Source of the DNA: Macrostomum lignano
Lineage: Eukaryota
NCBI GenBank assembly: GCA_002269645.1
Contig: NIVC01000027.1
Location: 434,001-498,000 of the forward strand
Length of the DNA stretch: 64,000 nt
Direction of reading: 5' to 3'
Position 1 is the stretch's first letter. Each line of letters opens with the position of its first letter. Positions 17,093-56,779 of this stretch are shown piece after piece. The translations under genes and the position numbers were made by a program. Below the pieces are notes generated by a model. It was given only the letters and a program-made list of their open reading frames with translations. It made no database searches and was not told where the DNA came from.

Positions 17093-20000
17093 TTAAGCCA
17101 CAGTTGCTGCAGCAGCCACTAGCCGCTCAGACTCGCCCTCATTCCCAGTCTCCCCATCGTCCTCATCATCCAGACACCTATTGTTAGCAGCGGCAATCAG
17201 GGCGGCCTCCTCGATCTTGGCCACGCGTCGGCAGTCTTCCGGATAGCGAATAGCGCAGGCCATAAACGCTGCAGACCCGGCGACGAGCACGAACAGCCCC
17301 AGGTACATGGCCCGTCGCAAAGCAATGAACTGCCGATAATAGCTGTCAGACCCACCGGCACGAAACCAGTCGGTTAGTAGGCCCAACAGGTAGGGCGATG
17401 TGGCGTCGCCAAGCAGGTGAGAGCTGAGCAGACTCAAGCCAGTTGCCGTAGCTCTCAAGCTCGGCAGGCAGACTCGCATGCACATATCGGTGACCAGGGC
17501 CCAGTTGGTGAAGAGGGCCAACTCAGTTAAGAAGATGAAGGCGTAGCCAAGGACCAGGTAGGACCGGACGGTGAGCAGGGTGGCCATTAGGAACGGAACC
17601 GAGAGCATCAGGCCGCCAGCGCAGACCAGCGGATCCGCTCTGGCGGTTCTTCGGCGAAGTCGGCGGGCGAGCTCGGTGCCGCCGATCACACCGAAGATGC
17701 CGGCCAAGCACGTCAAGACGCCGAACACCAGCGTGGTGCTGCCCGCTTCTGATTGGCTGCCGTCTGGGTGGGGGGAGGGGTGTTGGTGTCTGATTCTTAT
17801 TTGCTGCCGTCTGTGGTGCGGGAAGGGGTGTTGGTGCCCGCTTCTGATTGGCTGCCGTTTGGGGTGGGTGAAGAGGTGTTTGTGTCCGATTCTTATTGAC
17901 TGTCGTCTGGGGTGGGGAGGGGTGGGTGTCCAATTCTTATTGGCTGCCGTCTGGGGTGGGGGAGGCAATTAGGAATGTTAAGGACAATCCTTTTCAATGA
18001 AGTTTCTCACCTCTACTGAGCACAGACAGTCTAAGCATCTCAGGTGTCCACAGAGCCAGCGCTCCAGTCACAAAGGACACCGAACTCAATCCCAGCGTTG
18101 TGAGCACAAAAGTGCTAATCTTTGACAGGGCTCGCAGATCGTCCAACCATCTGGATGGATTGATAGCCGCCGCAGCGGCCGCCGCCGTGGCCGCGGGTCC
18201 TTCGGACTGGCCTCGCCGCGGCTCCCGAAAGCAGACGGCCAGCAAGATGACGCAGAGCAGGCCCAGAGGTGGAGTGACTCGCAGAGCCCAGTTCCAACCA
18301 TCAGTGGCGTCTGATACCAGCTGGCCAATCACGAATCCGACGCCTGTGCCGAAGGGCACCTGGGGTTTTGTTTGGGGGCTTTTTTGAAGGCCGATTATGC
18401 AGGGTGATTTGCAATGTTAGAAATTGGCTTTGGGGCTTTTTAAAGGGGCCCATTTTGAGCAACCAATCTTATTAAAGACATGAGAGACAACCGGCAAGAG
18501 GCATTACTGCCCATTCCGCCGACTCCCCTGAGCAGGCACACACAAGCGCGCGGATACGTACGCAGTCATACGCAAAGGCACACATCTCTGTATGACCAGC
18601 ACTACTTTCTGCACTTTCTGCAGTTTAAACTGGCACAATATTCTATGCAAATTTCACATCAAAGCTACAGAGCTTCCTGTTTAGCTGGTGACGCTAATCT
18701 GAACACGCGTGTTTTATAATTACAGGTTGGCAGCATTCGGCACGCCATAATGAACTTCATTTTTAAATATTCAGATTTAATCAAAGGCAATATTTTATTT
18801 GCTGCGATACAAGATTTAGCGAGCGTCACTTAAGGATTAGGGAAGGGGTCGATGAGAGATCAGGGAAAGGGGTCACTGAGGGATCAGGGAAAGGGGTCAC
18901 TGAGGGATCAGGGAAAGGGGTCACTGAGGGATCAGAGAAAGGGGTCACTGAGGGATCAGAGAATTGGGTCATTGAGGGATCAGAGAAAGGGGTCACTGAG
19001 GGATCAGGGAAAGGGGTCACTGAGGGATCAGGGAAAGGGGTCACTGAGGGATCAGGGAAAGGGGTCACTGAGGGATCAGGGAAAGGGATCACTGAGGGAT
19101 CAGGGAAAGGGATCACTGAGGGATCAGGGAAGGGATCACTGAGGGATCAGAGAAAGGGGGTCACTGAAGGATCAGGGAAAGGGGTCACTGAGGGATCAGA
19201 GAAAGGGGTCACTGAGGGATCAGAGAAAGGGGTCACTGAGGGATCAGGGAAAGGGGTCACTGAGGGATCAGGGAAAGAGGTCAGTGAGGGATCAGGGAAA
19301 GGGGTCACTAAGGATCACGGAAAGGGGTCACTGAGGGATCAGGGACAGGGGTCACTGAAGGATCAGTGGAGGGGGTCACTGAAGGATCAGTGGAGGGTCT
19401 CACTGAGGGATCAGAGAAAGGGGGTCACTGAAGGATCAGGGGTGTAGTAGCCAGACAATCTGCATCACTAACCAGCTTCACAAGCGATCGCACAAACCTG
19501 CAGATTAAACAGGATCAACGCCCAAGTCCTGGCATCGTGAGCAAACAGGTCGGCAATGATGGGCGCAGACACGGTGGCATAGGAAGCCTCGCCGACACCC
19601 ACCAGACTGCGGGAGACCAGCAGCAGGCCGAACATGCTGTTTGGCACAAATGATGAAGCTAAAGTGATGCCAGACCAGAGACAGACTCCCAGCAGCATGA
19701 TGCCTTTTCGGCTGAATAGCAAACGACCTGGTTGACCGCGGTCGCCTAGATAACCAAATATCTGCAGTTTAAAGGGCATTTTACTGATTGACAGTTTTTC
19801 TGTTTAATTCCTATTTAATCCCGTTTAGGAATGCATTTAAAGATTTTCATTGTGAGTATTTTTTTAGAATCAATTAAGATTTTTAAGAATTCGCTTTGAT
19901 AGTTTTTTAAAACCAGTTTGCTATTTCTTGGAATCCATTTAGAGGTTTTCCTAAAACCGTCTGGAGGTTTCTTAGAACTTGTTGAAATTTTCTTGTGTTG

Positions 20001-23000
20001 TAACCCGGGTCGGCTTGGGTGCCCAGTCCCGAGTACAATATATATTATATGTGATATAACAGGCGTTGTGACGCTCTGTCTGTACTTTTATGAATACGAC
20101 GAGCAGGCGTGGCGACGCTCTGCGATAATAATTTGATCCCTCTGGTGTTGTGACACTCAGAGTTCACGCTGCGGCTCGAGGTGTGGTGACACTCTCGAGT
20201 GCTTCTATTCTCTATACCGTAGGGCGTACGCAATATATGGTAAACGGTACCGTACTACAGAAGCTATATGGTCTCCCGGCGTTATGACGCTCTGGCAAGA
20301 ATTCGGCCTAGCAAGCTTCCCGGAAAGAAAGGACTCAAACAGCAGGCGGCTTACCAGTGGCCAGATGACTGTTCACCGTTTATTATTCGCAGGTCTCAAG
20401 CGCAGTTTCCGACTTCTTCTTAATTCTCCAAGACTCTTCTCAATTAGGCTATTGTGTTTCTTTTATCGAAGTAGCTAATGTTGCTGTTTCTTTTATCAGG
20501 TCTCGCGCTTGCACTCTCGGAGCACACCAAAACACAAAAAGCACGCAGGTGGTGGGCAAGAGCCAGAGTCGCACCATAAATAGCACCCAAACCCTGGGGC
20601 AGACGGCCCCACCGGCTAAGCTCACCAAAACAAACCACGCCGGCCCAGCCAATCAAAACCCCGCCTAAGGGGGGAGGAGCTGCACCCGCGCCAAAGCTGG
20701 CCCGGCCGCAGCCAACCAGCCCTGAGCACGGGGCAGGGGCACGGCTGGGGAGGGGCACGCGCAAAGCCCGGCCGGGGCCAGACCCTGCCACGCCCGCCAA
20801 CCCCCCCAACCAGCCCCAAAGTGCAACGCGCCCTGCCAACTGACAAGGGCGCATGCACTACACCCTCCCCTCCTACAAAAAAAACAGGGCGGAGCTCGAA
20901 CCACGGCGACTGGGATTCCAAATTTTTTAAATAACAAAGCAAAAAAAATCAAAAACAACAAAAAAAATTGGGAACAAACTAATGCAACAGGGAAAAGCAA
21001 AAAAAAGGTTGCCGCAAGAGAAATATGAAAAAGGTACTAGTATTCTGCACGCGAGTTCGTCAGGAGCAACCACGGGGCACGGAATAGGCCTTCAAAGCTG
21101 GCGGCACAGAAAACCATCGCAGGCGGCCGGCAGGACGAGCAGATGGCCGGGCGGGACGCGCAAGTTGCCGACAGGACACGCAGGTGGCCAGCAGGAAGCG
21201 CAGATGGCCGGGCGGGAAGCGCAGGTTGCCGACAGGACGCGCAGATGGCCGGGCAGGAAGCGCAGGTTGCCGACAGGACGCGCAGATGGCCGACAGGGCA
21301 CGCAGGTTGCCGACAGGACGCGCAGATGGCCGACAGGGCACGCAGGTGGCCGGCAAGACGCGAAGGCGGCCGGGCGAGGCGCGCAGATGGCCGGGCGGGA
21401 AGCGCACGTGGCCGCCGCAGAAGCCGGCAGGAAGCGCAGGTGGCCGCCGCAGAAGCCGGCAGGAAGCGCAGGTGGCCGCCGCAGAAGCCGGCAGGAAGCG
21501 CACGTGGCCGCCGCAGAAGCCGGCACGAAGCGCACGTGGCCGCCGCAGAAGCCGGCAGGAAGCGCACGTGGCCGCCGCACAGCTGCTGAGCCATTCCCCC
21601 AGGAAGCTTGACCCCACTAGCATGCAAATAAACCCATACAGTACGAGCGTAACAACATACATACAAGTAAGCAGAAAATACAGTATGAATCGGAACTGGG
21701 CACCCTAGCGAACCCGAAGTCCAGGGAGACCGACGCAGCTTTTCAGGACCTCGAGCAGCCTGCCGGGCCGGCGCAAACCGAACAGCGGGATGAGCTCGTG
21801 ACAGAGCTGTCGGACGAAACAATCAAAACTCTGCCTAGACCAGTAACGGCGGCCTGCTCTCTGACGCTTTACCGGAGCGATATCTCTGCGGATGAAGAAC
21901 AACGCCTGCAGCAGGACCATTGACAGTGCGCTCCTCGGTTCTCGCTGCGAGTCTCGAAACAGCCGTCTCATAACCGTGAGCACTGACACGATTCCGTCCG
22001 ACTGTCCAGCCAAAATATGCTTCATCAAACGATGGCGGAGCTGACGCGCAGCTGCCGATAACGACAGCTTTTCATCATCCCATATTGCTCCCGACGCGCG
22101 ATGTGAGACAACCTCCTTGCTTTCCGGTACATCGATCTCCATAGCTTCTGACTCACTACTTCCGGAGGAGCCATCCGATGCCAGCAACTCGTCTTCTTCT
22201 TCTGTGTCGATGCTACACTCATCCGACTCCTCGCTCTCATCGTCGTCCGAGATTAGAATGTAGCCATCCGCTTCGTAATCGTTCCTCTGTCCCTGTCTCC
22301 CCTGCCTGAGACCAGCTTCCTTGCGCTGAGCTTCTTCAACTTCTCGCCTTTGCTGTACTCCCTCTTCGATGTCCGCCGGCATTCTTACACCAGTAGGAGG
22401 TATGAACGTCATTGCGAAGGTTACAGCCTCGTCATACGGGATTGATTTATCGCCCAACTGGTCGTACATCGCTCGGCGATATGGACACGATAGAATTCTA
22501 CCAGCAGTCTCAATTTCTTGGAAACGGCGTCCTGCGAGTTCCTTGTCCGGGTGCTTGTCCGGGTGCCAGAAGAGCGCTAGCTGTCGATAGACTCGCCTGA
22601 TCTCGGCACGTTCGGCTGTGTGTCCGACTTGGAGGACAGCGTACAAATCCATCTGCAAAGCAACGTACTCAAACCTGCGACACACTGTCCCTGACTCCAG
22701 ATTCTACTCCTGCTCCCCTCTTGCCAGAGCGTCATCTCCTCGGACCGTGGCCCGCGGTACCCTGCATCGTAAAGTCCCAGCGCAAATTCGAGTTGTCACC
22801 GGATGCCAGTCCGAATACCCTCCACCGATGCATAGATTTTGTAGGCAAAATTTGATTCTCGTCAAAACTTCGATGAAGATGCGATTAAAATGACTTAATG
22901 ACGCATTAACGAATTTCTTGAATGACGCATTGGCGAACTGCTCGTACTCATGATGAATGATGCATTGATGAAGTACTCGTATTTATGATGAATGACGCAT

Positions 23001-26000
23001 TCGCGAAATATTTTTCTGGCTTTTAACGATAATCGCATATGAAACTGATGAGACTTCACGATGACGAGTAACCCATTAGAATGTCACTGGCTGGCCGTAG
23101 CGATCCGGCGGCCGTCGCAACCTTCCGGACCTTCGAGGCTCAGGTGCAGCTTCCACCGGGTTATGAGTAGGCTGCGGGTCGTCAACCAACTCCATCTGCT
23201 CTTCCAGCACCTCGGCGACTTCCTCGGCGTCCTGTGGCGGCATCAGTTGAGGCCGAGTCCAAGTCTCGCATTCCGCCTCTGTCTCCGAGTCCGTCTCGTC
23301 GACCACCTCCGGCGGTGCCGCGGTCCTAACTGGTGTTTCCAGGGCGGCCGGTCGAGCGAACTTCCGGAGGTTGTTGAAGTGGACGAACTTCGACTTTTTA
23401 CGATTTGACGGGTTTTCCACTTTGAAGAGCACCTCGGATCTTCTTTCGAGCACCTTCACTGGGCCGAGCCAGCTTACGTGAAACTTTGCGGCTTCGTCTG
23501 GTTTCAGGGCGGGGCTGTAGACGAAGACATGGTCACCCTCCTGAATATCGGATCCTCGGGTTCTTTTATCGTACTGGTCCTTCTGTCGCCGCTGATAAGT
23601 ATTCAACTGCTGTCGAGCAGCGCGATGAGCTGTCTGCAATTTGTCTTCTAGCTCCTTGACGAAATTTACATGCGAATCGACAGGCTGTGGCGGCTGGTCA
23701 GTCAAGTCTATCGGTAGGCGCATCTCCGTGCCATAGATCATGTAGTGGGGAGTATAACCCGTTGCTCGATGCACGCTTGATCGGTACGCCATTAACGCAG
23801 AGCTGACGAATTCTTCCCAGTCGTTTCGTCCTGAGTCCTCTAGGCAGCACTTGAGGATGGATTTTAAACTTTTATTGAAGTTTTCTACTTGTCCATTTCC
23901 GCTCGGATGATAAGCTGTTGTTCTGATCCTGCACATTTCGCGCATCACTTGCGATTCGAAGTTTCTTCCTTGGTCGCTGTGCAAAGTACTCGGACACCCA
24001 TGTTGGCTAATCCATCGATTGAAAAGCGCCCTTGCCACCGTCCTTGCCTTCTGGTTGCGAAGCGGGTACGCGTCAGGCCACTTCGTAAACGAATCTTGGA
24101 CTGTCAGGAGATAAATGTTTCCAGCCTTACTCCGCGGTAGCGGCCCGACAATGTCCATCATGACGCAATCGAATGGTGCTGCGAATGTCAACGGTTGCAG
24201 GGGTGCTCGGTTTCGCTTTCCCGGCTTTGACTTGCAGCAGGTGGCACAACCGCGAATATATTCTTCAATGGCACGAGACAATCCTGGACGCCAGTAGCGC
24301 TGAAGCACTTTAAATTTTGTCTTCGCAAAGCCCATGTGGCCACCTCCCACTCCCTCGTGTAGGGTTTTCAAGATACGATCCAATGCCTTTCGTGGCAGCA
24401 CCATTTGATACTCATCGCGCCTGTCTTTGTTTCTCACAAGGAGCACGTTCTCTTGCAGCACCAGGTCGTCTTTTCGAGTCCAGACGGCTCTAGCCAGTGG
24501 ACTCCAAGCTGTCTCGCTTTTATCTGGAACTGGGTTTGAGCCAAGCGCTTCCTTTACTGTTCTCAAATCGTCGTCTTGATCCTGCTCGCTTGCCAGATTG
24601 CCGGCTGAGAATCGTTCAAATTCGACTGCATTTAGTCCTTCTGGATGCTGCGCACATGCCGGGCATGTCTCCGCTCCGAAATGTCTCCGTACTGGCTTCC
24701 TCGACATTGCGTCCGCGTTGCCATGCGATCGACCTGGTCTGTGAACGATGCGGTACTGAAATGGAGCCAACTTCTCCAACCAGCGAGCAACCTGTCCCTC
24801 GGCGTCACTGAAGTTTTTTAACCATTGCAGGCTGCTGTGGTCCGTTCGCAGACAGAACGCTTTTCCAAGCAGATAGTATCTGAACTTCATGATGAAAGTC
24901 ACAACCGCTAGTAGTTCTAAACGAGTCGTACAATAGTTGCGTTCGGCTTGATTTAGTGTCTTGGACCCATAGGCGATCACTCGTTCTGCTCCATCTGGCT
25001 GGACTTGAGAAAGTACCGCTCCTATGCCCATCTTCGAACTGCCATCAGTATCGAGGATAAACTCTCCGGCATCCGGGGAGAAATCCGGATGAGCCATAAC
25101 CTCTGAACTTGTCATTCGTTCCTTCAATGTTTCGAACGCCAGCTGCTGTTCCGTTTTCCATTCAAACTTTGCGTCTTTTGTTGTCAATCGAGTTAGAGGC
25201 GCTGCTATTGCGGCGAAATCTTTAATAAACTTTCTGTAATAGCCACACAGGCCCAAGAATGAATGCAGCTCCGTCGAGGATCGCGGTGTTGGCCAGTTCT
25301 TCACTTCTTGAACTTTCTCCTCATCGGTACTGATGCCAGCAGCCGACAGCGTGTGACCGAGAAATTTCACTTGCTTTTGCAAAAAGTGACACTTCTGGGG
25401 CTTCAGGCACAAATTTGCTTGCCGCAACTTGCTGAATATTTCCTCCAGTCTTCTCAGGTGTTCATCCACGTCGGTTGACCAAACCAGTAGATCGTCGATG
25501 TAGACGAGACAGGTTTTCCACATCTGCTTGTCCAGAACGGCTGCCATCAACCTGGTGAATGTTGCTGGGCTGTTCACTAAGCCGAACGGCATAACCTTCC
25601 ATCGAAATTGTCCGCGATGCGGCACTGCAAACGCCGTCTTGTCCTGATCCTGAGGTCTCACCCCTACTTGCCAAAACCCGCTGTGAAGGTCCATTGTCGA
25701 GAAGATCTTGGCGCCGTGTACTGCCTCCAGCGCATCATCGACCCTCGGCATCGGCACTGCATCCTTGACGGTGACCTCATTCAACTTCCGATAATCGACG
25801 CACATCCTCATTTCCCCTGATTTCTTCTTTACGCACACCAAAGGAAAGCACCATGGTGACTGTGCTTCTTCGATCTGCCCCTTTTCCAGCAACTCGTTGA
25901 CTTGACGATCTACTTCTGGCTGTAAGTGGGGAGGCAGACGACGCGGTGGGATCTTGATTGGGCGCGCATTCTCGGTGTTAATTTCATGCTCCACCACGGT

Positions 26001-29000
26001 AGTTAACTTGCTTGAAATCTGCTTGGTCGTGAACACATCGCTGTAACTCCGGACAAGGATTCTAAATTCTTCGTCTTCTTTCGTCGACAGTCCACAGTCG
26101 CCGTACGAGTTTGGTAGCAAGTCTGCTTCCGAAGGGCTGTTGCTGCCTTGGACCTTCGGCTCTTCCTGTGGATCGTCTCCTGACTCTACGGCTAAGAGCT
26201 TGATGGTGTTCAACGGTTCGGTGGATTCTAGGGGGCAGAACCACCCGAGCGTACAACCTTGGCGAATTCTGACTGGCTCTTCCGTGATATTGATGAGTCG
26301 AGTCGGCAGACGGCTGCCGCTATTTGGGATCACTAAGGCCTTAGCAAGCCAGCGGCCAGCTGCCAAATCGTTCGCTCCGAGATTCTCAGTTAGACCGACA
26401 CACCCTCTGTTCCGTCGTCCTTTGCTCTCCAGCCTTGCTGACAGAACTGCTTGATGACCTGGCGGTATTGTGCTGGACCTTGTCGCCAAAATTCTGCAAA
26501 CGATCGGGCGCTCAGCTTGCCATCGGAACGGGATTGCAGTGTCCTGCACTGAAAAGACAGCTGTCTTGTAGTCGATAACGCAACTGTTGTCCCTGCAGAA
26601 GTCGGATCCCAATACCAGTTGGTACTTCACTCCGCTGACTACCAAGGCTGGAGTATCTATTACTTTATCAGCGATTGACAGTCGCAACAGGACTGTTCTC
26701 TCGATTTCGATCGGGCTGCCGTTTGCTAAGCTAACATAGCCTTCAGCACCGGCCAAATCTCTGACGCTCTGTTTCGGCATACTTTGGTAAGCTTCCCGTG
26801 AGATAATGGTGCAGGAAGCTCCCGAGTCCACTAGCGCGTTCACCCTCCGCCCTGCGATTGAGGCCGTAACATATATCGACGCAGGATTGATTTGAATTGA
26901 CTGAGGTGCGTTGACGGTGATTGGGCGCTGCGACTGTGCAAAACCGGCTAGTTGATGGTGAGGTGCAGTACCGGACGCTGGAGGCTGATGAGGCACTGTA
27001 ACGGACACTGGATGCTGATGAGACTCAGTACCGGACACTGTAGGCTGATGAGGCGCAGTACCGGACACTGGAGGCTGATGAGGCACTGTACCGGACACTG
27101 GATGCTGATGAGACACAGTACCGGACACTGGAGGCTGATGAGACGCTGTACCGGACACTGGATGCTGATGAGGCACTGTACCGGACACTGGAGGCTGATG
27201 AGGCGCAGTACCGGACACTGGATGCTGATGAGGCGCAGTACCGGACGCTGGAGGCTGATGAGGCGCAGTACCGGACACTGGATGCTGATGAGGCGCAGTA
27301 CCGGACACTGAATGCTGATGAGGCGCAGTACCGGACACTGGAGGCTGATGAGGCGCAGTACCGGACACTGGAGGCTGATGAGGCACTGTACCGGACACTG
27401 GATGCTGATGAGATGAAGTACCGGACACTGGATGCTGATGAGGCGCAGTACCGGACACTGGATGCTGATGAGGCGCAGTACCGGACACTGGATGCTGATG
27501 AGCCGCAGTACCGGACGCTGGATGCTGATGAGATGAAGTACCGGACACTGGATGCTGATGAGGCGCAGTACCCGACACTGGATGCTGATGAGGCGCAGTA
27601 CCGGACACTGGATGCTGATGAGCCGCAGTACCGGACGCTGGAGGCTGATGAGGCACTGTAACGGACACTGGATGCTGATGAGACTCAGTACCGGACACTG
27701 TAGGCTGATGAGGCGCAGTACCGGACACTGGAGGCTGATGAGGCACTGTACCGGACACTGGATGCTGATGAGACACAGTACCGGACACTGGAGGCTGATG
27801 AGACGCTGTACCGGACGCTGGAGGCTGATGAGGCGCAGTACCGGACACTGGAGGCTGATGAGGCGCAGTACCGGACACTGGATGCTGATGAGGCGCAGTA
27901 CCGGACACTGGAGGCTGATGAGATGAAGTACCGGACACTGGATGCTGATGAGGCGCAGTACCGGGCGTTTGATGATGATGAGATGAGATGACGACTTGTT
28001 CGGAGGCTGACGAATTGCAGGGGCTCACTTGCCTCCAGCTGGTGGGCCCCTCTTGCCTTTTCCCGGCTTTGGGCACTGGAATGAGAGATGGCCTATCTCC
28101 CCGCAGTTGTAGCACTTGACACCGCTACGCTGCTTCGAGCTGGACGGAGCCGCCTGCTTGGATTGTTGCTTGTCTTGAAGGCCGGGTTCGGGCGGCTCCT
28201 GCTGGCCCTGCTGCATCTGCTCCATCCGTCGGATCTTTTCTTCCATTTCCTTTACTTTTTGACGCAGTTGCCGTAGCTCCTCGTCTTTGCCGGTGTCACC
28301 TGTCGACGTTTCGGTGGCAAAGGCATTCAGCCCAGCCCTGGGTCTGGCTTTGGACTGGGTCGAAGACGCCTTCTGGGCTGCTTCAAGTTGTCTTACTGTT
28401 CGAATGGCATCGGTGAGGTTGGCCGTCTGCTGCAGGTACAGTCTTTCTCGGACAGTGTCGGTTACTCGAACACCTTTTAGAAATCTGTCTTTCGCCAGCT
28501 CTGTCCTGGTGTCGGCATCCGCGGTGGGGAAGGCATTGCGCACCAACTCCAGCAGCTCGTCCCCGTAGGTCTCCACAGACTCCTTGTCTAGCTGATCTCG
28601 ATTCGATAATTCAAAACGGTAGTCCTGGGCTGTTCTGTTCATGGTGAACCGCGCCAGCAGTGCATCCGTGAATTCCCCGTACTCGATGTCGTCTGCCAAG
28701 TCCAGCTTATCAACGGCAGCGTAGGCTGTTGTGAGGTCGAGTAGGCCGATCAGGTGCGGCCGCCTGGCTTCTTCTTCTATACCGACAGCCTCGCAGTACT
28801 CGTTGAAACTCTGCAGCCATAGGCTGAAATTCATCGTTGGTATGTACTTGGGCGGCTTCGAGAGTCGTGGCGCTGCTCGGTCGGCGTTGGCTCTGAGGCG
28901 CGCAGCCAGCGCATCGATCAGTTGGTCCATAGCTTGATCACCCATGGCCGAAGTCACTGAATACCGTTGCTACTCTTTACTCTGAGGTGGTGATAGCTAT

Positions 29001-31730
29001 CAATCTCTGATAACCAATCAGTTGTCTGTCACCGTGATCAATGTCTTTTGCGGTAGGGCAATAGCCGCAGGCGATAAGCAAAAGTCGTTTTAATAAGAAA
29101 AACGCTCACAATATGACAGCAATTTTCATAGAAAGCAACTGAGCCGACTTTCAATCTTTGGGGACAGGGTCCCTGTTCGGGCGCCAATTTGTTGTAACCC
29201 GGGTCGGCTTGGGTGCCCAGTCCCGAGTACAATATATATTATATGTGATATAACAGGCGTTGTGACGCTCTGTCTGTACTTTTATGAATACGACGAGCAG
29301 GCGTGGCGACGCTCTGCGATAATAATTTGATCCCTCTGGTGTTGTGACACTCAGAGTTCACGCTGCGGCTCGAGGTGTGGTGACACTCTCGAGTGCTTCT
29401 ATTCTCTATACCGTAGGGCGTACGCAATATATGGTAAACGGTACCGTACTACAGAAGCTATATGGTCTCCCGGCGTTATGACGCTCTGGCAAGAATTCGG
29501 CCTAGCAAGCTTCCCGGAAAGAAAGGACTCAAACAGCAGGCGGCTTACCAGTGGCCAGATGACTGTTCACCGTTTATTATTCGCAGGTCTCAAGCGCAGT
29601 TTCCGACTTCTTCTTAATTCTCCAAGACTCTTCTCAATTAGGCTATTGTGTTTCTTTTATCGAAGTAGCTAATGTTGCTGTTTCTTTTATCAGGTCTCGC
29701 GCTTGCACTCTCGGAGCACACCAAAACACAAAAAGCACGCAGGTGGTGGGCAAGAGCCAGAGTCGCACCATAAATAGCACCCAAACCCTGGGGCAGACGG
29801 CCCCACCGGCTAAGCTCACCAAAACAAACCACGCCGGCCCAGCCAATCAAAACCCCGCCTAAGGGGGGAGGAGCTGCACCCGCGCCAAAGCTGGCCCGGC
29901 CGCAGCCAACCAGCCCTGAGCACGGGGCAGGGGCACGGCTGGGGAGGGGCACGCGCAAAGCCCGGCCGGGGCCAGACCCTGCCACGCCCGCCAACCCCCC
30001 CAACCAGCCCCAAAGTGCAACGCGCCCTGCCAACTGACAAGGGCGCATGCACTACACTTGGAATCATCCAGGTTTCTTAGAATCAGTTAATAGGTATTTT
30101 TAGAATTTGTTTGGATTTCTTAGAATCTGTCACGAGATTTATCAAAATCTGTTAAGAGTGACTCTGCTTAATTCTTTCTTAAAATCTGCGTAACGATTTC
30201 TTAGAATTTGTTCAAATGTTTCTTAGAATCCGTTAAGAGGTTTCTTAGAATCCGTTAAGAGGTTTCTTAGAATCCGTTAAGAGGTTTCTTAGAATCCGTT
30301 AAGAGGTTTCTTAGAATCCGTTAAGAGGTTTCTTAGAATCCGTTAAGAGGTTTCTTAGAATCCGTTAAGAGGTTTCTTAGAATCCGTTAAGAGGTTTCTT
30401 AGAATCCGTTAAGAGGTTTCTTAGAATCCGTTAAGAGGTTTCTTAGAATCCGTTAAGAGGTTTCTTAGAATCCGTTAAGAGGTTTTTTTAGAATCCGTTA
30501 AGAGATTTCTTAGAATCCGTTAAGAGGTTTCTTAGAATCCGTTAAGAGGTTTTTTAGAATCCGTTAAGAGGTTTTTTAGAATCCGTTAAGAGGTTCCTTA
30601 GAATCCGTTAAGAGCTTTCTTAGAATCCGTTAAGAGGTTTCTTAGAATCCGTTAAGAGGTTTCTTAGAATCCGTTAAGAGGTTTCTTAGAATCCGTTAAG
30701 AGGTTTCTTAGAATCCGTTAAGAGGTTTTTTTAGAATCCGTTAATAGGTTTCTTAGAATCCGTTAATAGGTTTCTTAGAATCCGTTAAGAGATTTCTTAG
30801 AATCCGTTAAGAGGTTTTTTAGAATCCGTTAAGAGGTTTCTTAGAATCCGTTAAGAGGTTTCTTAGAATCCGTTAAGAGGTTTCTTAGAATCCGTTAAGA
30901 GGTTTCTTAGAATCCGTTAAGAGGTTTCTTAGAATCCGTTAAGAGGTTTCTTAGAATCCGTTAAGAGGTTTCTTAGAATCCGTTAAGAGGTTTCTTAGAA
31001 TCCGCTAATAGGTATTTTTAGAATTCGTTTGGATTTCTTAGAATCTGTCACGAGATTTCTCAAAATCTGTTAAGAGTGACTCTGCTCAATGCTTTCTTAA
31101 AATCTGCGTAACGATTTCTTAGAATTTGTTCAAATGTTTCTTAGAATCCGTTAAGAGGTTTCTTAGAATCAGTTTAGAGGTTTTATAAACCCAAATTTTT
31201 GTTCATCATTGTGATTGATAAAAAGATTTAATAAAATTAACTAATACAACAATTTTAGTTTCCCAGAAATAGAAAGTACAATGCTAGAAGAAAGCTTCAG
31301 AACTTTAAAGGTAAGCAGAGCTAAGCAGAGTACAGCTAAAAGAAAAAAAATTCAACAACACACTCACCGGACACAGCATCATATAAGACAGGATGAAGCA
31401 AGTCTGCAGCAGTCCAGAATCTTTGAAATCAACTTTAAAACTGCTTTTAATTCTGTGCAAGACAGCTGCCACTGTGCTTCGATCGGCATAATTTAACAAA
31501 TTCACAAGGCAGAGCAACCCGGCTGAGACGTATGCAGAGCCGCCGCTGCATCTACGGTGATGCCGCTCAGTAACTAGCGGTGCCTCATCTTCATCCGAAG
31601 CTAATGTTGATGAAGAAGATGAGGCATTTGCACCAGCATCTGACTGAGTCTGGGATGCCAGAGCTACGTAACGTCTGTGAGAGCCGCTTTGCGCCCTGGA
31701 GTCATCCAGCAGACTTGAACTGCTGGCCAT
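17093..31730 (-). CDS. SPNS1: Spinster-family MFS lysosomal transporter, 543 aa
   Basis: Exons 31730-31368, 19761-19498, 18359-18011 and 17748-17093 join in frame with GT-AG sites (1632 nt). Motifs: LLNYADRSTVAAVL, FGYLGDR, RSLVGVGEASYATVSAPIIADLF, WNWALRVTPPLG, RATATGLSLLSSHLLGDATSPYLLG. The SPNS paralog assignment is approximate. Confidence 0.9.
17749..17960. repeat. Diverged ~45-50 bp repeat in spinster intron 3
   Basis: About 4-5 copies of CAGACGGCAGCCAAT(A/C)AGAA...CACC on the minus strand; the last copy includes the real acceptor. Confidence 0.75.
18835..19440. repeat. Minisatellite, 24-bp unit GGGATCAGGGAAAGGGGTCACTGA, spinster intron 2
   Basis: About 25 copies read directly. Confidence 0.95.
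19996..20862 (-). repeat. 3' LTR (867 bp)
   Basis: No difference from 29190-30056 found by eye, and the ORF-track peptides are identical. On the minus strand: TATTTAT at 20582-20576 and AATAAA at 20384-20379; CCAAT box at ~20651-20655. Confidence 0.95.
20863..20874 (-). other. Polypurine tract AGGAGGGGAGGG
   Basis: Purine run abutting the TG start of the 3' LTR on the minus strand. Confidence 0.85.
21115..21580. repeat. GC-rich tandem repeats (~20/40-bp units) in the element's 3' UTR
   Basis: GCCGACAGGACGCGCAGATG and GCCGCCGCAGAAGCCGGCAGGAAGCGCA units; they generate many overlapping repetitive ORFs. Confidence 0.85.
21705..22652 (-). CDS. J-domain (DnaJ/Hsp40 type C) protein carried by the retrotransposon, 315 aa
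   Basis: MDLYAVLQV...EIRRVYRQLALFWHPDKHPDKELAGRRFQEIETAGRILSCPYRRAMYDQLG is a complete J domain with HPD. An acidic tract and a helical C-terminal region follow. The ORF is intronless and lies between pol and the 3' LTR. Confidence 0.9.
   Translation of the reverse strand: MDLYAVLQVGHTAERAEIRRVYRQLALFWHPDKHPDKELAGRRFQEIETAGRILSCPYRRAMYDQLGDKSIPYDEAVTFAMTFIPPTGVRMPADIEEGVQQRREVEEAQRKEAGLRQGRQGQRNDYEADGYILISDDDESEESDECSIDTEEEDELLASDGSSGSSESEAMEIDVPESKEVVSHRASGAIWDDEKLSLSAAARQLRHRLMKHILAGQSDGIVSVLTVMRRLFRDSQREPRSALSMVLLQALFFIRRDIAPVKRQRAGRRYWSRQSFDCFVRQLCHELIPLFGLRRPGRLLEVLKSCVGLPGLRVR
23076..28115 (-). CDS. pol: Pol polyprotein (repeat spacer, aspartic protease, RT, RNase H, integrase)
   Basis: PR LVDSGAS; RT LVYIDDLLV; RNase H LDTDGS...NYCTTRLELLAV; IN H-H-C-C (LHEGVGGGH...CATC), MDIVGP...HSDQGRNF...QVENFN; C-terminal WLGP motif. 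The ORF is in the -1 frame relative to gag. Confidence 0.95.
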   Translation of the reverse strand: MLQLRGDRPSLIPVPKAGKRQEGPTSWRQVSPCNSSASEQVVISSHHHQTPGTAPHQHPVSGTSSHQPPVSGTAPHQHPVSGTAPHQPPVSGTAPHQPPASGTASHQPPVSGTVSHQHPVSGTVPHQPPVSGTAPHQPTVSGTESHQHPVSVTVPHQPPASGTAAHQHPVSGTAPHQHPVSGTAPHQHPVSGTSSHQHPASGTAAHQHPVSGTAPHQHPVSGTAPHQHPVSGTSSHQHPVSGTVPHQPPVSGTAPHQPPVSGTAPHQHSVSGTAPHQHPVSGTAPHQPPASGTAPHQHPVSGTAPHQPPVSGTVPHQHPVSGTASHQPPVSGTVSHQHPVSGTVPHQPPVSGTAPHQPTVSGTESHQHPVSVTVPHQPPASGTAPHHQLAGFAQSQRPITVNAPQSIQINPASIYVTASIAGRRVNALVDSGASCTIISREAYQSMPKQSVRDLAGAEGYVSLANGSPIEIERTVLLRLSIADKVIDTPALVVSGVKYQLVLGSDFCRDNSCVIDYKTAVFSVQDTAIPFRWQAERPIVCRILATRSSTIPPGHQAVLSARLESKGRRNRGCVGLTENLGANDLAAGRWLAKALVIPNSGSRLPTRLINITEEPVRIRQGCTLGWFCPLESTEPLNTIKLLAVESGDDPQEEPKVQGSNSPSEADLLPNSYGDCGLSTKEDEEFRILVRSYSDVFTTKQISSKLTTVVEHEINTENARPIKIPPRRLPPHLQPEVDRQVNELLEKGQIEEAQSPWCFPLVCVKKKSGEMRMCVDYRKLNEVTVKDAVPMPRVDDALEAVHGAKIFSTMDLHSGFWQVGVRPQDQDKTAFAVPHRGQFRWKVMPFGLVNSPATFTRLMAAVLDKQMWKTCLVYIDDLLVWSTDVDEHLRRLEEIFSKLRQANLCLKPQKCHFLQKQVKFLGHTLSAAGISTDEEKVQEVKNWPTPRSSTELHSFLGLCGYYRKFIKDFAAIAAPLTRLTTKDAKFEWKTEQQLAFETLKERMTSSEVMAHPDFSPDAGEFILDTDGSSKMGIGAVLSQVQPDGAERVIAYGSKTLNQAERNYCTTRLELLAVVTFIMKFRYYLLGKAFCLRTDHSSLQWLKNFSDAEGQVARWLEKLAPFQYRIVHRPGRSHGNADAMSRKPVRRHFGAETCPACAQHPEGLNAVEFERFSAGNLASEQDQDDDLRTVKEALGSNPVPDKSETAWSPLARAVWTRKDDLVLQENVLLVRNKDRRDEYQMVLPRKALDRILKTLHEGVGGGHMGFAKTKFKVLQRYWRPGLSRAIEEYIRGCATCCKSKPGKRNRAPLQPLTFAAPFDCVMMDIVGPLPRSKAGNIYLLTVQDSFTKWPDAYPLRNQKARTVARALFNRWISQHGCPSTLHSDQGRNFESQVMREMCRIRTTAYHPSGNGQVENFNKSLKSILKCCLEDSGRNDWEEFVSSALMAYRSSVHRATGYTPHYMIYGTEMRLPIDLTDQPPQPVDSHVNFVKELEDKLQTAHRAARQQLNTYQRRQKDQYDKRTRGSDIQEGDHVFVYSPALKPDEAAKFHVSWLGPVKVLERRSEVLFKVENPSNRKKSKFVHFNNLRKFARPAALETPVRTAAPPEVVDETDSETEAECETWTRPQLMPPQDAEEVAEVLEEQMELVDDPQPTHNPVEAAPEPRRSGRLRRPPDRYGQPVTF
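26953..27970. repeat. Coding 27-bp tandem repeat (~37 x 9-aa HQ[H/P]PVSGT[A/V/S][P/S])
   Basis: Read directly in the DNA and in the 1679-aa ORF, upstream of the protease. Confidence 0.95.
28025..28945 (-). CDS. gag: Gag (capsid-like region + CCHC zinc knuckle)
   Basis: First ATG at 28945 (the ORF track starts at GTG 28957); helical capsid-like region with a RDQ..ESV..Y motif; CYNCGEIGHLSFQC knuckle; TGA at 28027-28025. Confidence 0.9.
   Translation of the reverse strand: MGDQAMDQLIDALAARLRANADRAAPRLSKPPKYIPTMNFSLWLQSFNEYCEAVGIEEEARRPHLIGLLDLTTAYAAVDKLDLADDIEYGEFTDALLARFTMNRTAQDYRFELSNRDQLDKESVETYGDELLELVRNAFPTADADTRTELAKDRFLKGVRVTDTVRERLYLQQTANLTDAIRTVRQLEAAQKASSTQSKARPRAGLNAFATETSTGDTGKDEELRQLRQKVKEMEEKIRRMEQMQQGQQEPPEPGLQDKQQSKQAAPSSSKQRSGVKCYNCGEIGHLSFQCPKPGKGKRGPPAGGK
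29169..29186 (-). other. Primer binding site for tRNA-Lys(UUU)
   Basis: TGGCGCCCGAACAGGGAC lies 3 nt after the 5' LTR; this is the canonical 18-nt tRNA-Lys3 PBS (as in HIV-1). Confidence 0.92.
29190..30056 (-). repeat. 5' LTR (867 bp)
   Basis: Direct repeat of 19996-20862; followed by the PBS on the minus strand. Confidence 0.95.
30220..31010. repeat. Minisatellite, 22-bp unit TTAGAATCCGTTAAGAGGTTTC, spinster intron 1
   Basis: About 36 copies; degenerate relatives also occur at ~19860-19995 on the other side of the retrotransposon. Confidence 0.95.
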
Positions 31731-37766: not shown

Positions 37767-40016
37767 CATTGCCCAAAATTTCTCCTCATGGCAATGACCC
37801 ATGGCAATGGCCGGCCATTGCCTAGAATTCCAATTCCAATGCAACCAATTAATTCAAGCCAGTTTTTATCCAGCATCTTGCAAAGCATATTTTGCATCAG
37901 TCAATTCAAAATGTTTATTTTAAGATGTAAATAATTAAACTGGCACAGGAATTGCAAAATCGACAGTACAAAAAGCACAGTGTCAGTGTATCATGTAAAC
38001 TTTTGTCGGTGATGAACATCATACTGGTCGTTAAAGTCACTAAATAAAAAATATTAAACTAGACTGTCATTCTTATTCTTTCAGTAATTCTACGAGTACA
38101 ATTTGCTGATTCCTGTAGAAGTAAAGATTGCATGCCTAATTAAAGGAACATCCGTGAAAGGTGCAATTGTTGAAGGCAAACTTCGTACCAACAGAATAGG
38201 CAGCTTCAGTGCTAACACTAACCTCCGTCGATACTGCAGTCTCACCGACGATCTCAACAGCATCAGCATGTTCGGGTGGCCCAGCTTCTTGCTCTAGATC
38301 ATGACGATTCAATGCCACCTGAACAGACTCACTCGTCTTTTGAAGCGACCGGTTGCGACGCTTGGCTAGGTACCTCCTAGTCGTTCGCTCGCTCAGCTGT
38401 CCAGTAATGCTCATTATATTGCTCATGCTGTGCCCTGCCGCCTCGAGATCGCATATTCGCGTGACCCTGTTTTAGAGTGCAAATTTATATAGTTGGATTC
38501 ATGAGTAATTGGTAACATAACATGTATCATAACATAATTAAAGTTACTATTATTAATTTATCAGTCTTACCGAATGCAATGATTTGTGTAGGTCTTCGCA
38601 AGTCCCGCCTTCATACTCAATTTTCTCATGAAGCCACTCAGATAATTCTCTCCACGGTTCTGCTTCGAGGAGAAAACAGGGCCTCCATCGTTGCGGCTGG
38701 CCAAAGGACGAGGAAACAGATTGTTGTCTTTCGTTGTAACTGGAAGCAGCTTGAGGTATTTCTCCACCTTTTCCACGTCGTAAATTCTGGCCTGCTTGTT
38801 GTCCGGCTGCTTCTTGGCCTTCTCTGGATCTGCTGACTTATTTTTCGAGGGCAACGGAGGCAGACAGTAGAACGGCTTTCCATCAGAGTCGACGTGCAAT
38901 TGAAGTGAGCTTCTATCCTTCAAGAACTTGAGGTGCTCCTGGCCTCGCTCGCCAAAGCTGTATATGATGTAGAATAAGAATTTGTCCTGCTCAACTTCAG
39001 CTGTGCTGCCTTGGAAGTAGATCATCAGCTTCCTCATGTCCCCCTCCTCGATTGGCTCAAACTGCTGCGTCCTCCCACCACTCTGGTGAAAGTCTCGAAC
39101 CTTCACACGCAGCATGCTATTTGCAGAAGAAAAGTCTTCTCCATTGATGATGTCAACGGTTAGCTTCTCAATCATCCACAAATAGTGCTGCAGTCCAGCC
39201 CTGATGCACACCAGCGATGCGGGCAAGTAAGGTTTGCCGTCAATCTTCTTCAGTTTAAAGTAGAAGTAGCGAATGTATTGGTTGAGCACCGAATTCGGAA
39301 TGGTTTGTAAATTGCGCTGAAGATTTTCCTCTGTGAGGAATGTCTTGAACCGCTGTCCATGGCTGATCATCTGCTTCCTGCTGTCTGCTGGTAGGCTGTC
39401 AATCTCGGCGATGTCCATGGCGCTGATATCTACGCCACCTTCCTGCAGGAGCGGCAGATGCTCATTGGGCTCGGGCTCCTTTTGAATGAATTCGAGAAAT
39501 CTAGCGAACTCATTGTCCCTTCTGTCATTGTAAGAAGCCTCCGAAACAAAATTCAATTTGTCCTTAGTCACGTTGCCCAGCTCACTGCAGGGCAAATGCT
39601 TCCAATTAATGAGCGGTGCCTCCATCTCTGCAGCCGTCCGCTTTTCTCTATCTGAGATTTGACCTCTAGACATGCAAATATTTATATTTGTAATTAATTT
39701 AGGGGTGGGTGCAGAGTAAGGGGTGGGTGACTTCAGGTGCGCGACTTAAAGGTGAGACATAGGCGAGGTGGAGGTAACCTTAGGCCTATCTCAAATCCCC
39801 TTAGAAGCATCGACTGATAAGAATTCAAGATAGTGTCCATAAAGTGCATAGATTACGTAAGAGTTTTGAAATTTTAAGCAATGGAGGGTTCATCGGAAGT
39901 CAGAGTTTAAGGCAATGGCCTTTGACACAAGCCATGGTAGCCGCAGAGTGGCGGTAGCCGCGAGTGTCAATTAGGCCATTGCCTTTAACTCTGACTTCCG
40001 ATGAACCCTCCATTGC
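37767..40016 (-). mobile_element. Crypton-type (tyrosine recombinase) DNA transposon, apparently complete
   Basis: Contains a spliced YR gene, interrupts a copy of the dispersed repeat, has a 6-bp direct repeat CATTGC at 37767-37772 and 40011-40016, and has terminal GCAATG/CATTGC motif clusters. Confidence 0.75.
38136..39673 (-). CDS. Crypton / DUF3504-like tyrosine recombinase, 477 aa, 1 intron
   Basis: Exons 39673-38571 and 38466-38136 (GT-AG intron of 104 bp; 1434 nt in frame). Motifs: YLPASLVCIRAGLQHYL, FGERGQE (R), YTNHCIR (HxxR), IMSITGQ, RRY (Tyr nucleophile). Confidence 0.88.
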
Positions 40017-40018: not shown

Positions 40019-42895
40019 CCCATTCCACCAACTCCCCTGAGCAAGCATACAAGTGCATGGATATGTACATAGGTACTCACTCATATAGGGATGTATAGTG
40101 GCCCTAACTTTATTTTATTGTTAGGCATATATATTTCATTGCGCCTTAGGGGGAGGGTTGGCTTTCAAGGCCATTAATTGCAAGAGTAGAGCCAAGCCAA
40201 GATTCCAATTCAGTCCCAAATTAATGTGATTGCACTTGGAATCAAGCCTGGGTTACTGGAATACTAGAGCTTATGCTAGACTGCTAGGCTATGGCCCTCT
40301 TGCATACATAACATACTTTCTATTTTAACTTTTATTGATAACTCAAATATCATTTTATACCATTTTGTATTTATATAACTAAATCTAGCCTTTCTTTGTT
40401 GTGAATTTTTACTTAGCAAATAGATCAGTTTGCTGCATTATCATTCAAACTAAAATAAATTGTCTGTGTCGCATCAATATTTACCATATCATAGGCCTAG
40501 GCCTATGCAAATTAGAGTTTAAAGGATTTTTGTAACAAATTCTAATCTAACTTAATTAGATTTTGACTATTTTCTATTTTTTATGACTTAATATTTTAAG
40601 GACCTTGTCCTAGGCCATAATACTTCTTTTTTAAGGATTTATTATAAAATAAAAAACTAACATAAACATAAAATTGACTACTTAAGCCTACTTAGGTTAA
40701 GATTAGGACAACGTATATTGCATTGTTAGGGACTTAATTAAATTGTTAAATGTGATTTGATTAAATTTGATTAAATATTTGATTAAGTAAACCTTACTTG
40801 GACATTGCTTCATATAATGCCTTATAGATAGATACCTCAGACTTAGTTTTACTTTTAGTACTTAGTGTTACTTAGTGTCACTTATCAGTTTGGATACAAA
40901 ATACAGATGGAAACCTCCTAAGTGCCTGGCAAGTTAAAAAAGAGTAAGTTAAAATATTTGATAGGCTAACTTAAAATATATGAATACCAAATCCCCAGCC
41001 AGTAAAAACTTGAGTCCCAATCCCAAATGTATATGGTTTTGAATCCTTCAATCACGAAAGACATATGAATTTACGTCAGTTCTTATCCACCTCAGCTTAG
41101 AGTTAGGGCAAGCCCCTTTAGCCACGCAAGTACAGCAAGCAAGATGCCAGTCTCGTAAGTCTCAACCAGCGATTCTGCGAAAAAGATATTAATTTAAAAT
41201 TATAACGCGTTATAACAAATAATACATATTTTTATCGCTCAACAGGTTAAATATGCAAACAGACACCAAAATCATAATTTTCAAATATACTTAAAAATTA
41301 CATTTTTGAAACAATAGTTTTTCTTTTTGAAGATATCTTTAGCGTGGTGGAAACTATGCAGATTTTTAACTTATCTTTTTGTTCAGCTTAATTTAAGTTG
41401 CTGTCCTTAGCATGCTACTCTAATTGGAATGGTGCTTCACTGCTTTACCTTTTGAATAGCTAATATGTTACTAATGTGTAACTATTATGTAAGTTAAAAA
41501 GAACTTCATATTTACATAATACTTTAGGAAATAAATATTTCTCTCACCGATAGAAAACGGCGGTTAAGCTAACTTGAACTGATTAGCGTTAGCAACTGTT
41601 ATTTTATTATTGATTTTCCAATAAAATTTAATTAATTAAAGTTATTATTTTCAAATTTAACTATTTGAAAAAGCAAAGGCAAAGCAAAACGTTCTACTAA
41701 AAATATCTCACAAGTACGTTTAACGGTTCTTAACTCAGAAATTTATCAAGAGCTATTCCACTGTGGCATGTACTTTTTAGAAACAAAAACTTGTCTCTAT
41801 GTCTATGTGATTATAATAAAAAAAGAATAATAATAAAGAGTAAAGAGTAAAGAGTAATAAAGAGAGAATAAAGAATAATAAAGAGCTATTTTACTACTAA
41901 AACTAGTATACGTAACATTTTAAGTAGGACACAACCATTCGACTTTAAATGGGATTGTAAATATGTAAATAATTGCAAGTATTACAGTTTACTATTTACA
42001 GGCTTGTTCACACATCCACCTAATAAATGATTCTGAACTATTTGAGAACACATAGCTTGTTACAAGTTTTTCGTGGTTTTGCACAGCAGACGTTTAATTT
42101 GACGGTTAATTTCATGGCGCTTTCAAAAAGTAACAGAGTTTGATGACCCTAAATAAGAGGCAAGCGCGTGGAGGCAACACCCTTAAATGGACACTCGCCC
42201 CTCTACCACCAAGTTGGATGTTCATGGTGGGCTGTAGCTGTTTAATATACAACGCTGTTTAATGTTAATGTTTCATTCTGGCTTACTATAAAATTTACCA
42301 TCTCTCTGCATCTGCATTATCTATTTAATTATCTTCATTATCTAAGCACTACTACACCCGTAATAATTTATTTTGCTTGACATCTTAATCCGGTTGGATT
42401 CCTCTTTCTGAGACATTTAATTCACACTTATTGGTGCGATTCAATTTTGTACAGCAGATATTCAATTGTTATTGATTTTTTTACAGTTTCTTTGCCTTAA
42501 CATGTACGGTACCAATTTATTTTTTTCATTTACGAACTCCTAAACAGCTTTAAAGAATTTCCTGTTTTTTGTTGCGCCTCCACTGCTATTGGGAAGAGGG
42601 TGAATCAACGCGCATTTTTAAATACGAAAGGTCGGGAGTTCGATTCTCTCGAAGGTATAACAATTAATTTGATAAAATATGACACAAATTTTCCACCCTT
42701 TGTGTGTACAAACCGAATAACAATAGAAAGGTGAAGTTTGGAGAGAAGTTGCTGCAAAATGATTTGGAGCCAAGGCCTTCATTTTCATCAAAACAGTTGC
42801 AAGAAATAATTTTTTGAGCAAAAATCTCCCTTCAGAAGGCCATTATAGGCCTTTTTTCGATTAAGACTACAAAACACGATATTTAGCACAAAAAT

Positions 42896-43157
42896 TGATG
42901 TGTGTCGAGATTAAGATGACGAGCGGTGCAAGGTTATCGTTTATATTTGATGGTATAATCAGGAATCTTGAACGCATAGTTCTGGGCGGGGTCTTGAGGG
43001 GGAGAAGGGCTGAAACCGAGAGGAGCTCTGCGAAAGAAAGAGTATACTGCCATAGACTAACTAAACAGCAACAAAACGAAAGTTGAGCGAGCTTAAGTCA
43101 CATAGACAGAAAAACAATAATGCACTAAAGCTATAGGCTGAGCTCTGATGCACAACA
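42896..43157 (-). repeat. 3' LTR of the Mag-type element (262 bp)
   Basis: Identical to 47195-47456 by direct comparison. Confidence 0.95.
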
Positions 43158-43336
43158 TGTCCCCCTTACGGAACGAAGGGCGTGGGGCCGATATTCACGC
43201 ATACGCGCGTGAGCAACAATCATAGAAAGAACTATTCAAACTATCATATGTGGGAAACGACTATGCCAGAGCGTTATGTTAGGTATATGATTAAGTAGAG
43301 CAGTTTTTGTTATCTGAAGAATTGTCAGTGAGTCAA

Positions 43337-47194: not shown

Positions 47195-47456
47195 TGATGT
47201 GTGTCGAGATTAAGATGACGAGCGGTGCAAGGTTATCGTTTATATTTGATGGTATAATCAGGAATCTTGAACGCATAGTTCTGGGCGGGGTCTTGAGGGG
47301 GAGAAGGGCTGAAACCGAGAGGAGCTCTGCGAAAGAAAGAGTATACTGCCATAGACTAACTAAACAGCAACAAAACGAAAGTTGAGCGAGCTTAAGTCAC
47401 ATAGACAGAAAAACAATAATGCACTAAAGCTATAGGCTGAGCTCTGATGCACAACA
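47195..47456 (-). repeat. 5' LTR of the Mag-type element (262 bp)
   Basis: Identical to 42896-43157; directly followed by ATGGCG. Confidence 0.95.

Positions 47457-47983: not shown

Positions 47984-56779
<8,796 letters not shown>

Follow-up and report, generated by a model that had tools for sequence, protein, structure and literature searches.

A retrotransposon inside a transporter gene

The window (the whole 64,000-nt stretch of Macrostomum lignano DNA that was analysed) holds a Ty3/gypsy LTR retrotransposon of 10,061 bp, running from 30056 to 19996 on the minus strand, the strand of every element feature given below. It is placed in that class by its direct LTRs with TG...CA ends, a target-site duplication, a PBS, a polypurine tract, a zinc knuckle in gag and a pol with the order PR-RT-RNase H-IN. 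The 5' LTR (29190..30056) and the 3' LTR (19996..20862) are each 867 bp long and 100% identical to one another, and the target-site duplication CAAG is found at 19992..19995 with its second copy at 30060-30057. The PBS (29169..29186), which I take to be of the tRNA-Lys type, lies 3 nt past the LTR, and the polypurine tract occupies 20863..20874. Gag (28025..28945) encodes 306 aa with the zinc knuckle, and pol (23076..28124) lies in the -1 frame relative to it, a slippery-type heptamer, G GGA AAA (-1), standing near the end of gag at 28064-28058. The domain order of pol comes from Pfam, and in its frame the DSG motif of the protease can be read. A 30-nt tandem array (26950-27990) follows the gag stop and precedes the protease; it is open in the pol frame and is read there as 10-residue repeats.

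The element is young, a recent insertion. Despite its identical LTRs, the copy may be integration-defective, to judge from its predicted integrase, in which the catalytic D and E (about 23985-23890) are separated by 29 residues instead of 35. The spacing is 35 residues in the second gypsy-type element of the window, which is also intact (42894-47456, minus strand) and has LTRs of 264 bp, identical to each other, and one gag-pol ORF of 1285 aa with its ATG directly after the 5' LTR.

A motif scan of the 5' LTR found a TATA-like TATTTA at 29776-29771, and AATAAA lies at 29578-29573. A 17-nt motif with the core TGACGC or TGACAC occurs five times in the U5 part of the LTR (29256-29488, and likewise in the 3' LTR copy), and GC-rich tandem repeats with several frames open fill 21100-21600, between the stop of the third reading frame and the polypurine tract. 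An Rfam scan of the element gave a single sub-threshold chance match.

The insertion lies in sense orientation within intron 1 (19762..31367, minus strand) of a host gene for a spinster-like MFS transporter (MFS_1 match), whose four inferred exons, when joined, leave a frame of 548 aa open. The gene is one of four co-oriented host genes (35783-10964, minus strand), the others being a low-complexity ORF, mitochondrial L50 and a zinc-knuckle protein, and each of the four has a CAG 0-18 nt ahead of its ATG. The layout looks operon-like, as yet unproven. The host introns of the window are rich in minisatellites and have the look of an invertebrate animal; such introns are typical of Macrostomum. 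Elsewhere in the window there are an NWD1-like NACHT gene on the plus strand (47984-56780; eight inferred exons, 2174 aa open) and two minus-strand ORFs, one at 38567-39673 with a weak QRICH1-domain match and one at 62877-63848 for an OTU-protease, both possibly transposon-derived.

A J-domain protein in the position of env

Downstream of pol lies a third reading frame, ORF3 (21705..22652), whose 315-aa product consists of a J domain at residues 2-64 with its HPD intact, a coiled and acidic linker, and a basic helical C-terminal domain at about 200-307. The product is a J-domain (Hsp70 co-chaperone-type) protein and not an env. Pfam recognizes the DnaJ domain with an E value of 5.5e-18, the model has the J fold when compared with DNAJB8 (Z 11.7, rmsd 1.2 over 67 residues), and the best-ranked structural matches among those listed are J domains. 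The five helices of the C-terminal domain are modelled mostly at pLDDT 70-90 and the acidic linker at low confidence; a single-sequence model was poor (pLDDT 49). The first-pass annotation had spoken of an env-style arrangement, and this is apt as regards position only. A signal peptide or other membrane segment was sought in ORF3 and not found (maximal 19-residue hydropathy 1.33), there are 0 N-glycosylation sequons, and both are likewise absent from all four homologs described below (hydropathy 0.94-1.56). An env is rejected on these grounds, a J domain being found instead.

The C-terminal domain is harder to place. It has no match in Pfam at the curated cut-offs, finds only de novo helical bundles among PDB sequences, and has a weak lead (0.75) in the Atlas to DnaJ-X. 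Structure comparison, made with the domain as it stands within the whole-protein model and not folded alone, gives generic helical matches up to Z 7.6. The last 130 residues of ORF3 contain 25 Arg/Lys vs 10 Asp/Glu. An LxCxE motif occurs in one of the five family proteins only.

That family was assembled by a deep search, which found four relatives similar along the whole family (P0007-P0010; E 4e-57 to 1e-21, 30-52% identity in the alignment). The J domain with HPD is present in three of the four, P0007 being without the N-terminal part, and the C-terminal domain keeps 19 invariant columns across the five family proteins. A word-index search with the J ORF alone returned only four generic J proteins among 3827 candidates, and a C-terminal profile search for longer proteins recovered, among 8000 scored candidates, only three of its own input proteins, with no new members and no pol fusions. 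A further protein, P0006, is the gene model of a near-identical copy and joins the end of pol to exactly the ORF3 Met. It looks like the choice of an ab initio predictor, and because the donor it implies is weak (score 2.7), it is not taken as evidence of expression.

The conservation of its predicted protein suggests that ORF3 is a conserved, probably selected accessory gene. Where the first-pass annotation had a deliberately expressed accessory gene, the conserved accessory ORF stands (four homologs, 30-52%), and the expression itself is what I infer in the sections below.

A reading frame that almost certainly needs its own message

The spacer between pol and ORF3 (22653..23075) is 423 nt long and contains nine ATGs and two stops in the frame shared by pol and J. 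The last of these ATGs, at 22735, starts an ORF in another frame that extends across the J start. Since there are nine upstream ATGs and two in-frame stops, it is unlikely that ribosomes reach ORF3 by scanning or readthrough, and arrival from pol by readthrough or reinitiation was rejected on the same grounds. ORF3 almost certainly needs its own mRNA. Given the nine ATGs and the overlapping ORF from 22735, any efficient message for J has to start, or have its splice junction, in roughly the last 83 nt ahead of the ORF.

The spacer also contains, at 22895-23023, four degenerate repeats of the form AATGCRTCATT with a ATGACGCAT-type core, where 0.09 would be expected. They could represent bZIP-type sites belonging to an internal promoter, or else a decayed minisatellite.

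A candidate acceptor that abuts the start codon

The candidate 3' splice acceptor, TTGCTTTGCAG, occupies 22653..22663, and its AG (22654-22653) abuts the ORF3 ATG (22652-22650). The first-pass annotation had pointed to this junction, TTGCTTTGCAG|ATG on the minus strand, and the sequence bears it out from 22663 to 22650. It had also described a pyrimidine tract before the CAG, which is right insofar as 7 of 10 nucleotides are pyrimidines; two Gs interrupt the tract.

Splice models were trained on ten host introns, themselves inferred in the window from GT-AG ends and continuity of frame, and acceptors were scored in three ways, by a pooled model, by a position-specific model and by pyrimidine count. 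Set against the host acceptors, each left out in turn, the acceptor at 22653 comes above one of ten with the pooled model and above five of ten with the position-specific one. Among the 28 AGs of the spacer it is third by the pooled model, first by the position-specific model and first, with ties, by pyrimidine count; in the sense strand of the element, with its 749 AGs, the corresponding places are 55th, 10th and 61st (again with ties). There is a second AG 15 nt upstream of it, and none of the ten host acceptors has another AG within 20 nt. As an acceptor, TTGCTTTGCAG is of only moderate strength.

Twelve AGs lie past the last upstream ATG (22735), and 22653 is the first of these with all three models, its place under the pooled model having been taken from the listing, where both better-scoring sites lie upstream of 22735. 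The abutting AG is thus supported as the best acceptor that gives an mRNA without upstream ATGs, and this start-codon constraint is a stronger argument for the acceptor than is its score. The runner-up among the twelve is another CAG, at 22675, 22 nt upstream of 22653, whose use would give the same protein. A micro-intron of 22 nt from a donor-like CAG|GTTTGA at 22674 (score 9.3) was considered and rejected, as it falls below the smallest host intron of the window, 73 nt.

How often would such a site arise by chance? CAG stands directly ahead of 33 of the 1827 ATGs on both strands of the window (1.8%), and [C/T]TNCAG|ATG occurs at four of them, the other three opening ORFs of 1, 3 and 9 aa. 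Calculated for a fixed position from the base composition of the spacer, the chance is 0.013 for CAG and 0.0018 for YTNCAG. The motif [T/C]TNCAG is also matched by six of the ten host cis acceptors.

The relatives of ORF3 bear on the same junction. P0008 and P0010 start at a Met aligned with that of ORF3. In P0009 (31% identity) the aligned Met is directly preceded by a 14-residue extension that ends S-Y-S-L-L-Q, which would fit the reading of a YTN-CAR|ATG site. An L-Q|M reading is found at 6 of the 1827 window ATGs and is expected at about 0.3% by composition. Among the 150 matches listed, four have a Met at query position 1 together with an extension, and these are P0006, P0009 and a pair of generic J proteins that have no Q there. 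The argument is post hoc and comes from one independent protein, in which a Gln codon CAG is indistinguishable from CAA. The acceptor does exist as a motif, and with all splicing routes taken together I consider it fairly likely to be used.

A candidate donor within the LTR

An acceptor before the ORF and a donor in the 5' region are what a spliced ORF3 message calls for, and both are found, at the level of motifs only. The donor is very probably not the one first suggested. The first-pass annotation had offered GTGAGC at about 29109, between the PBS and gag. The sequence is there (ATT|GTGAGC, 29104..29112), but as a donor it is weak and unsupported: its score of -0.7 is under those of all ten host donors (3.2-9.4), places it 14th of the 45 GTs of the leader and is equalled or exceeded at 2896 of the 6559 GTs of the window, and it is without the G at -1 that eight of ten host donors have. 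An exon ending there would moreover keep the ATG at 29129, which opens an out-of-frame ORF of 31 codons across the J start.

The best candidate is CTG|GTAAGC (29543..29551), with its GT at 29548, which is within the LTR and some 25 nt downstream of AATAAA. Its score of 6.7 is within the host range of 3.2-9.4, it is first of the 45 leader GTs and tied for first among the 416 GTs up to J, and it matches seven of nine consensus positions; 144 of the 6559 GTs in the window score at least 6.7. If transcription starts near 29745, an assumption that puts the start about 30 nt past the TATA-like box, then exon 1 up to this donor is about 197 nt long and free of ATGs. Given a start further upstream, the ATG at 29771 would precede the donor.

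The leader contains another site of note, a CAG at 28982, 36 nt ahead of the gag ATG, that is second of the 749 AGs by the pooled model and fourth of the 39 leader AGs by the position-specific model. A splice from 29548 to 28982 would yield a gag-pol message without the PBS. The copy of the LTR donor within the 3' LTR, at 20354, lies 592 nt upstream of the acceptor of host exon 2 (19762), and read-through RNA could splice from it into the host transporter gene.

How ORF3 might be expressed

Taking as given the anatomy of the element, its motifs, the constraints set by ATGs and stops, and the protein family, I propose the following with regard to splicing, choice of donor, start of transcription and role of the protein. 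Unspliced RNA from the 5' LTR would serve as genome and as gag-pol message. A fraction of this RNA would be cis-spliced from 29548, in the LTR, to 22653, or else to the CAG 22 nt upstream with the protein unchanged. The splice would take out U5, the PBS, gag, pol and all upstream ATGs, leaving the J start codon first, and the resulting mRNA would not be reverse-transcribable. By analogy with foamy virus and HIV-1, the LTR donor might also hold back polyadenylation at the 5' LTR. The J protein, through its HPD, would most likely recruit host Hsp70 to the element RNP or capsid, bound via the basic C-terminal domain; bringing Hsp70 to one or the other is the likeliest role if J-protein biology is a guide. 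A cis-spliced mRNA from the LTR to ORF3 is the best reading of the sequence features, and I would put it at nearly, but not quite, an even chance.

Its main rival is that ORF3 receives a spliced leader (SL) by trans-splicing at 22653. The RNA would be operon-like, with ORF3 as a downstream gene, or would come from an internal promoter located in the 3' end of pol or the spacer. The site fits [T/C]TNCAG, the top trans-splice acceptor motif of M. lignano (PMC8629364), and flatworm SLs end in ATG (PMC12582326), which at zero offset would be in frame. But YTNCAG does not discriminate between the two kinds of splicing, since it is also present in six of the ten host cis acceptors. A CAG lies 0-18 nt ahead of the ATG in four of five host genes, directly abutting it in one; this is a weak point, for a CAG is found within 20 nt ahead of 613 of 1826 random window ATGs. 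The four AATGCRTCATT repeats of the spacer, against 0.09 expected, count in favour of this rival. Trans-splicing is favoured where there is no upstream cis donor (PMC8629364), yet RNA driven by the LTR has a good one at 29548, a difficulty that an internal promoter would sidestep. The two routes can coexist, as they do in Cer1, whose spliced mRNA occurs with and without SL1. I regard trans-splicing as rather unlikely. It is unlikely, too, that the CAG is incidental, ORF3 being either expressed unspliced from an internal promoter that starts about 80 nt or less from the ATG or hardly expressed at all in this copy. The moderate score, the competing upstream AG and the 1.8% of ATGs that have CAG|ATG by chance all agree with this, and foamy viruses do have internal promoters (PMC3694450), but inspection by eye shows no TATA-like box within those final 83 nt, the L-Q|M of P0009 would then be a coincidence of about 0.3%, and the ORF3 family is conserved.

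Three further accounts keep the splice but take it from elsewhere. A donor in gag (ACA|GTAAGA, 28396, phase 0), or one in pol, might join 22653 to give a fusion of the kind seen in CERV, Gag(1-183)-J in the former case. The Cer1 protein does have N-terminal peptides in common with Gag, and donor 28396 has a score of 5.8, fits GTRAG and would join J in phase. The LTR donor outscores it, though, and ORF3, P0008, P0009 and P0010 all retain the Met at J position 1, which argues for independent initiation; I think such a fusion very unlikely. Nor is it at all probable that the acceptor serves mainly as an exon trap for the spinster-like gene. The element is inserted in sense in intron 1, the host donor (CCG|GTGAGT) is strong, and if host exon 1 (phase 0) is spliced to J, the product is an in-frame chimera of 436 aa, open to its end in the 3' LTR; such splicing would, however, face competition from the many AGs of the 10-kb insert and from the poly(A) signal of the 5' LTR, and it would account for a side effect of one insertion, not for the existence of the site. 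Least probable of all is cis-splicing from 29109, the route of the first-pass annotation. Its GTGAG is a GTRAG donor core, and its place, between PBS and gag, is that of the orthoretroviral donor; against it stand the score of -0.7, the missing G at -1 and the out-of-frame ATG at 29129 that overlaps J. Cis-splicing from 29548 is the reading I prefer.

Relation to known elements

ORF3s are typically expressed from spliced messages, and LTR retrotransposons of bdelloid rotifers carry captured extra ORF3s other than env (PMC5408684). The element described here resembles these in having a captured non-env ORF3 and, as I propose, a spliced message, and differs in its cargo, the word "DnaJ" being absent from the main text of that paper, as it is from those of PMC12801592, PMC13524379 and PMC6338049. 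In Drosophila gypsy, env is likewise a third ORF in equal position with a spliced transcript (PMC8096092), but its start codon is supplied by the exon on the gag side and the product is a membrane glycoprotein, whereas here the ATG is downstream of the acceptor. Cer1 of C. elegans makes a spliced accessory mRNA, cerv, with and without SL1 (PMC3315495, PMC10309623). CERV is a five-exon protein that shares peptides with Gag, whereas ORF3 begins at a conserved start Met of its own and encodes a J domain, and none of the searches made here related ORF3 to CERV.

The position of the donor recalls foamy viruses, in which U1 binds to a donor within the LTR and this donor represses polyadenylation at the 5' LTR; a downstream donor has that effect in HIV-1 (PMC3694450). 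As in foamy viruses, the candidate donor is within the LTR, beside the poly(A) signal and present in both LTRs. The foamy donor, however, is upstream of the poly(A) signal (PMC3694450), whereas the one here, if it has such a role, lies some 25 nt downstream of it, level with the expected cleavage site or slightly beyond.

Among Ty3/gypsy elements, those of the Osvaldo lineage (PMC3286476) are similar in their size of about 10 kb, long LTRs, mostly 4-bp TSDs and a tRNA-Lys-type PBS (the label for the present element being my assumption); the LTR here, at 867 bp, is just under the 997-2055 bp of the mosquito set in that paper. M. lignano has 40 Gmr1/Osvaldo families, and the main text that reports them makes no mention of a J-domain ORF (PMC12801592). 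The LTR of Mlig-id38, given in supplement 5 of the same paper, is a different sequence of 337 bp. Published M. lignano families include some that bear HSEs, and heat-shock control like theirs was considered and set aside, as a motif scan of the LTR found neither a canonical HSE nor any HSE-type motif.

The nearest parallels for the protein are viral. Baculovirus BJDP and giant-virus DnaJ also put an N-terminal J domain for host Hsp70 on a mobile element, and polyomavirus T antigen and pestivirus Jiv are further viral proteins with J domains. The structural matches of ORF3 to viral J proteins all have E > 0.001, and the J domain seems to account for them; for the C-terminal domain there is no clear match. 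The literature searched, outside which lie subscription papers, repeat databases and some supplements, contains no description of an LTR retrotransposon with a J domain.

A spliced third ORF is to be expected in elements of this kind, so the acceptor by itself is ordinary; what is unusual is the J-domain cargo. One may go further and imagine a family of animal Ty3/gypsy elements with its own Hsp70 co-chaperone, a J domain joined to an undescribed basic helical domain, in the position of env. Its expression would be either by SL trans-splicing, as for an operon gene of the host, at an acceptor fused to the start codon, or from a donor embedded in the LTR that controls 5' LTR polyadenylation as well, and the protein would direct Hsp70 to assemble, remodel or export the RNP. 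Taken whole, this is a speculation that I hold tentatively and think rather unlikely. The more modest view is that the acceptor would mark the J-domain ORF as an accessory gene with an expression of its own. J proteins are known from DNA viruses; if the present case is confirmed, then a retroelement, too, carries its own means of engaging the host Hsp70 system.
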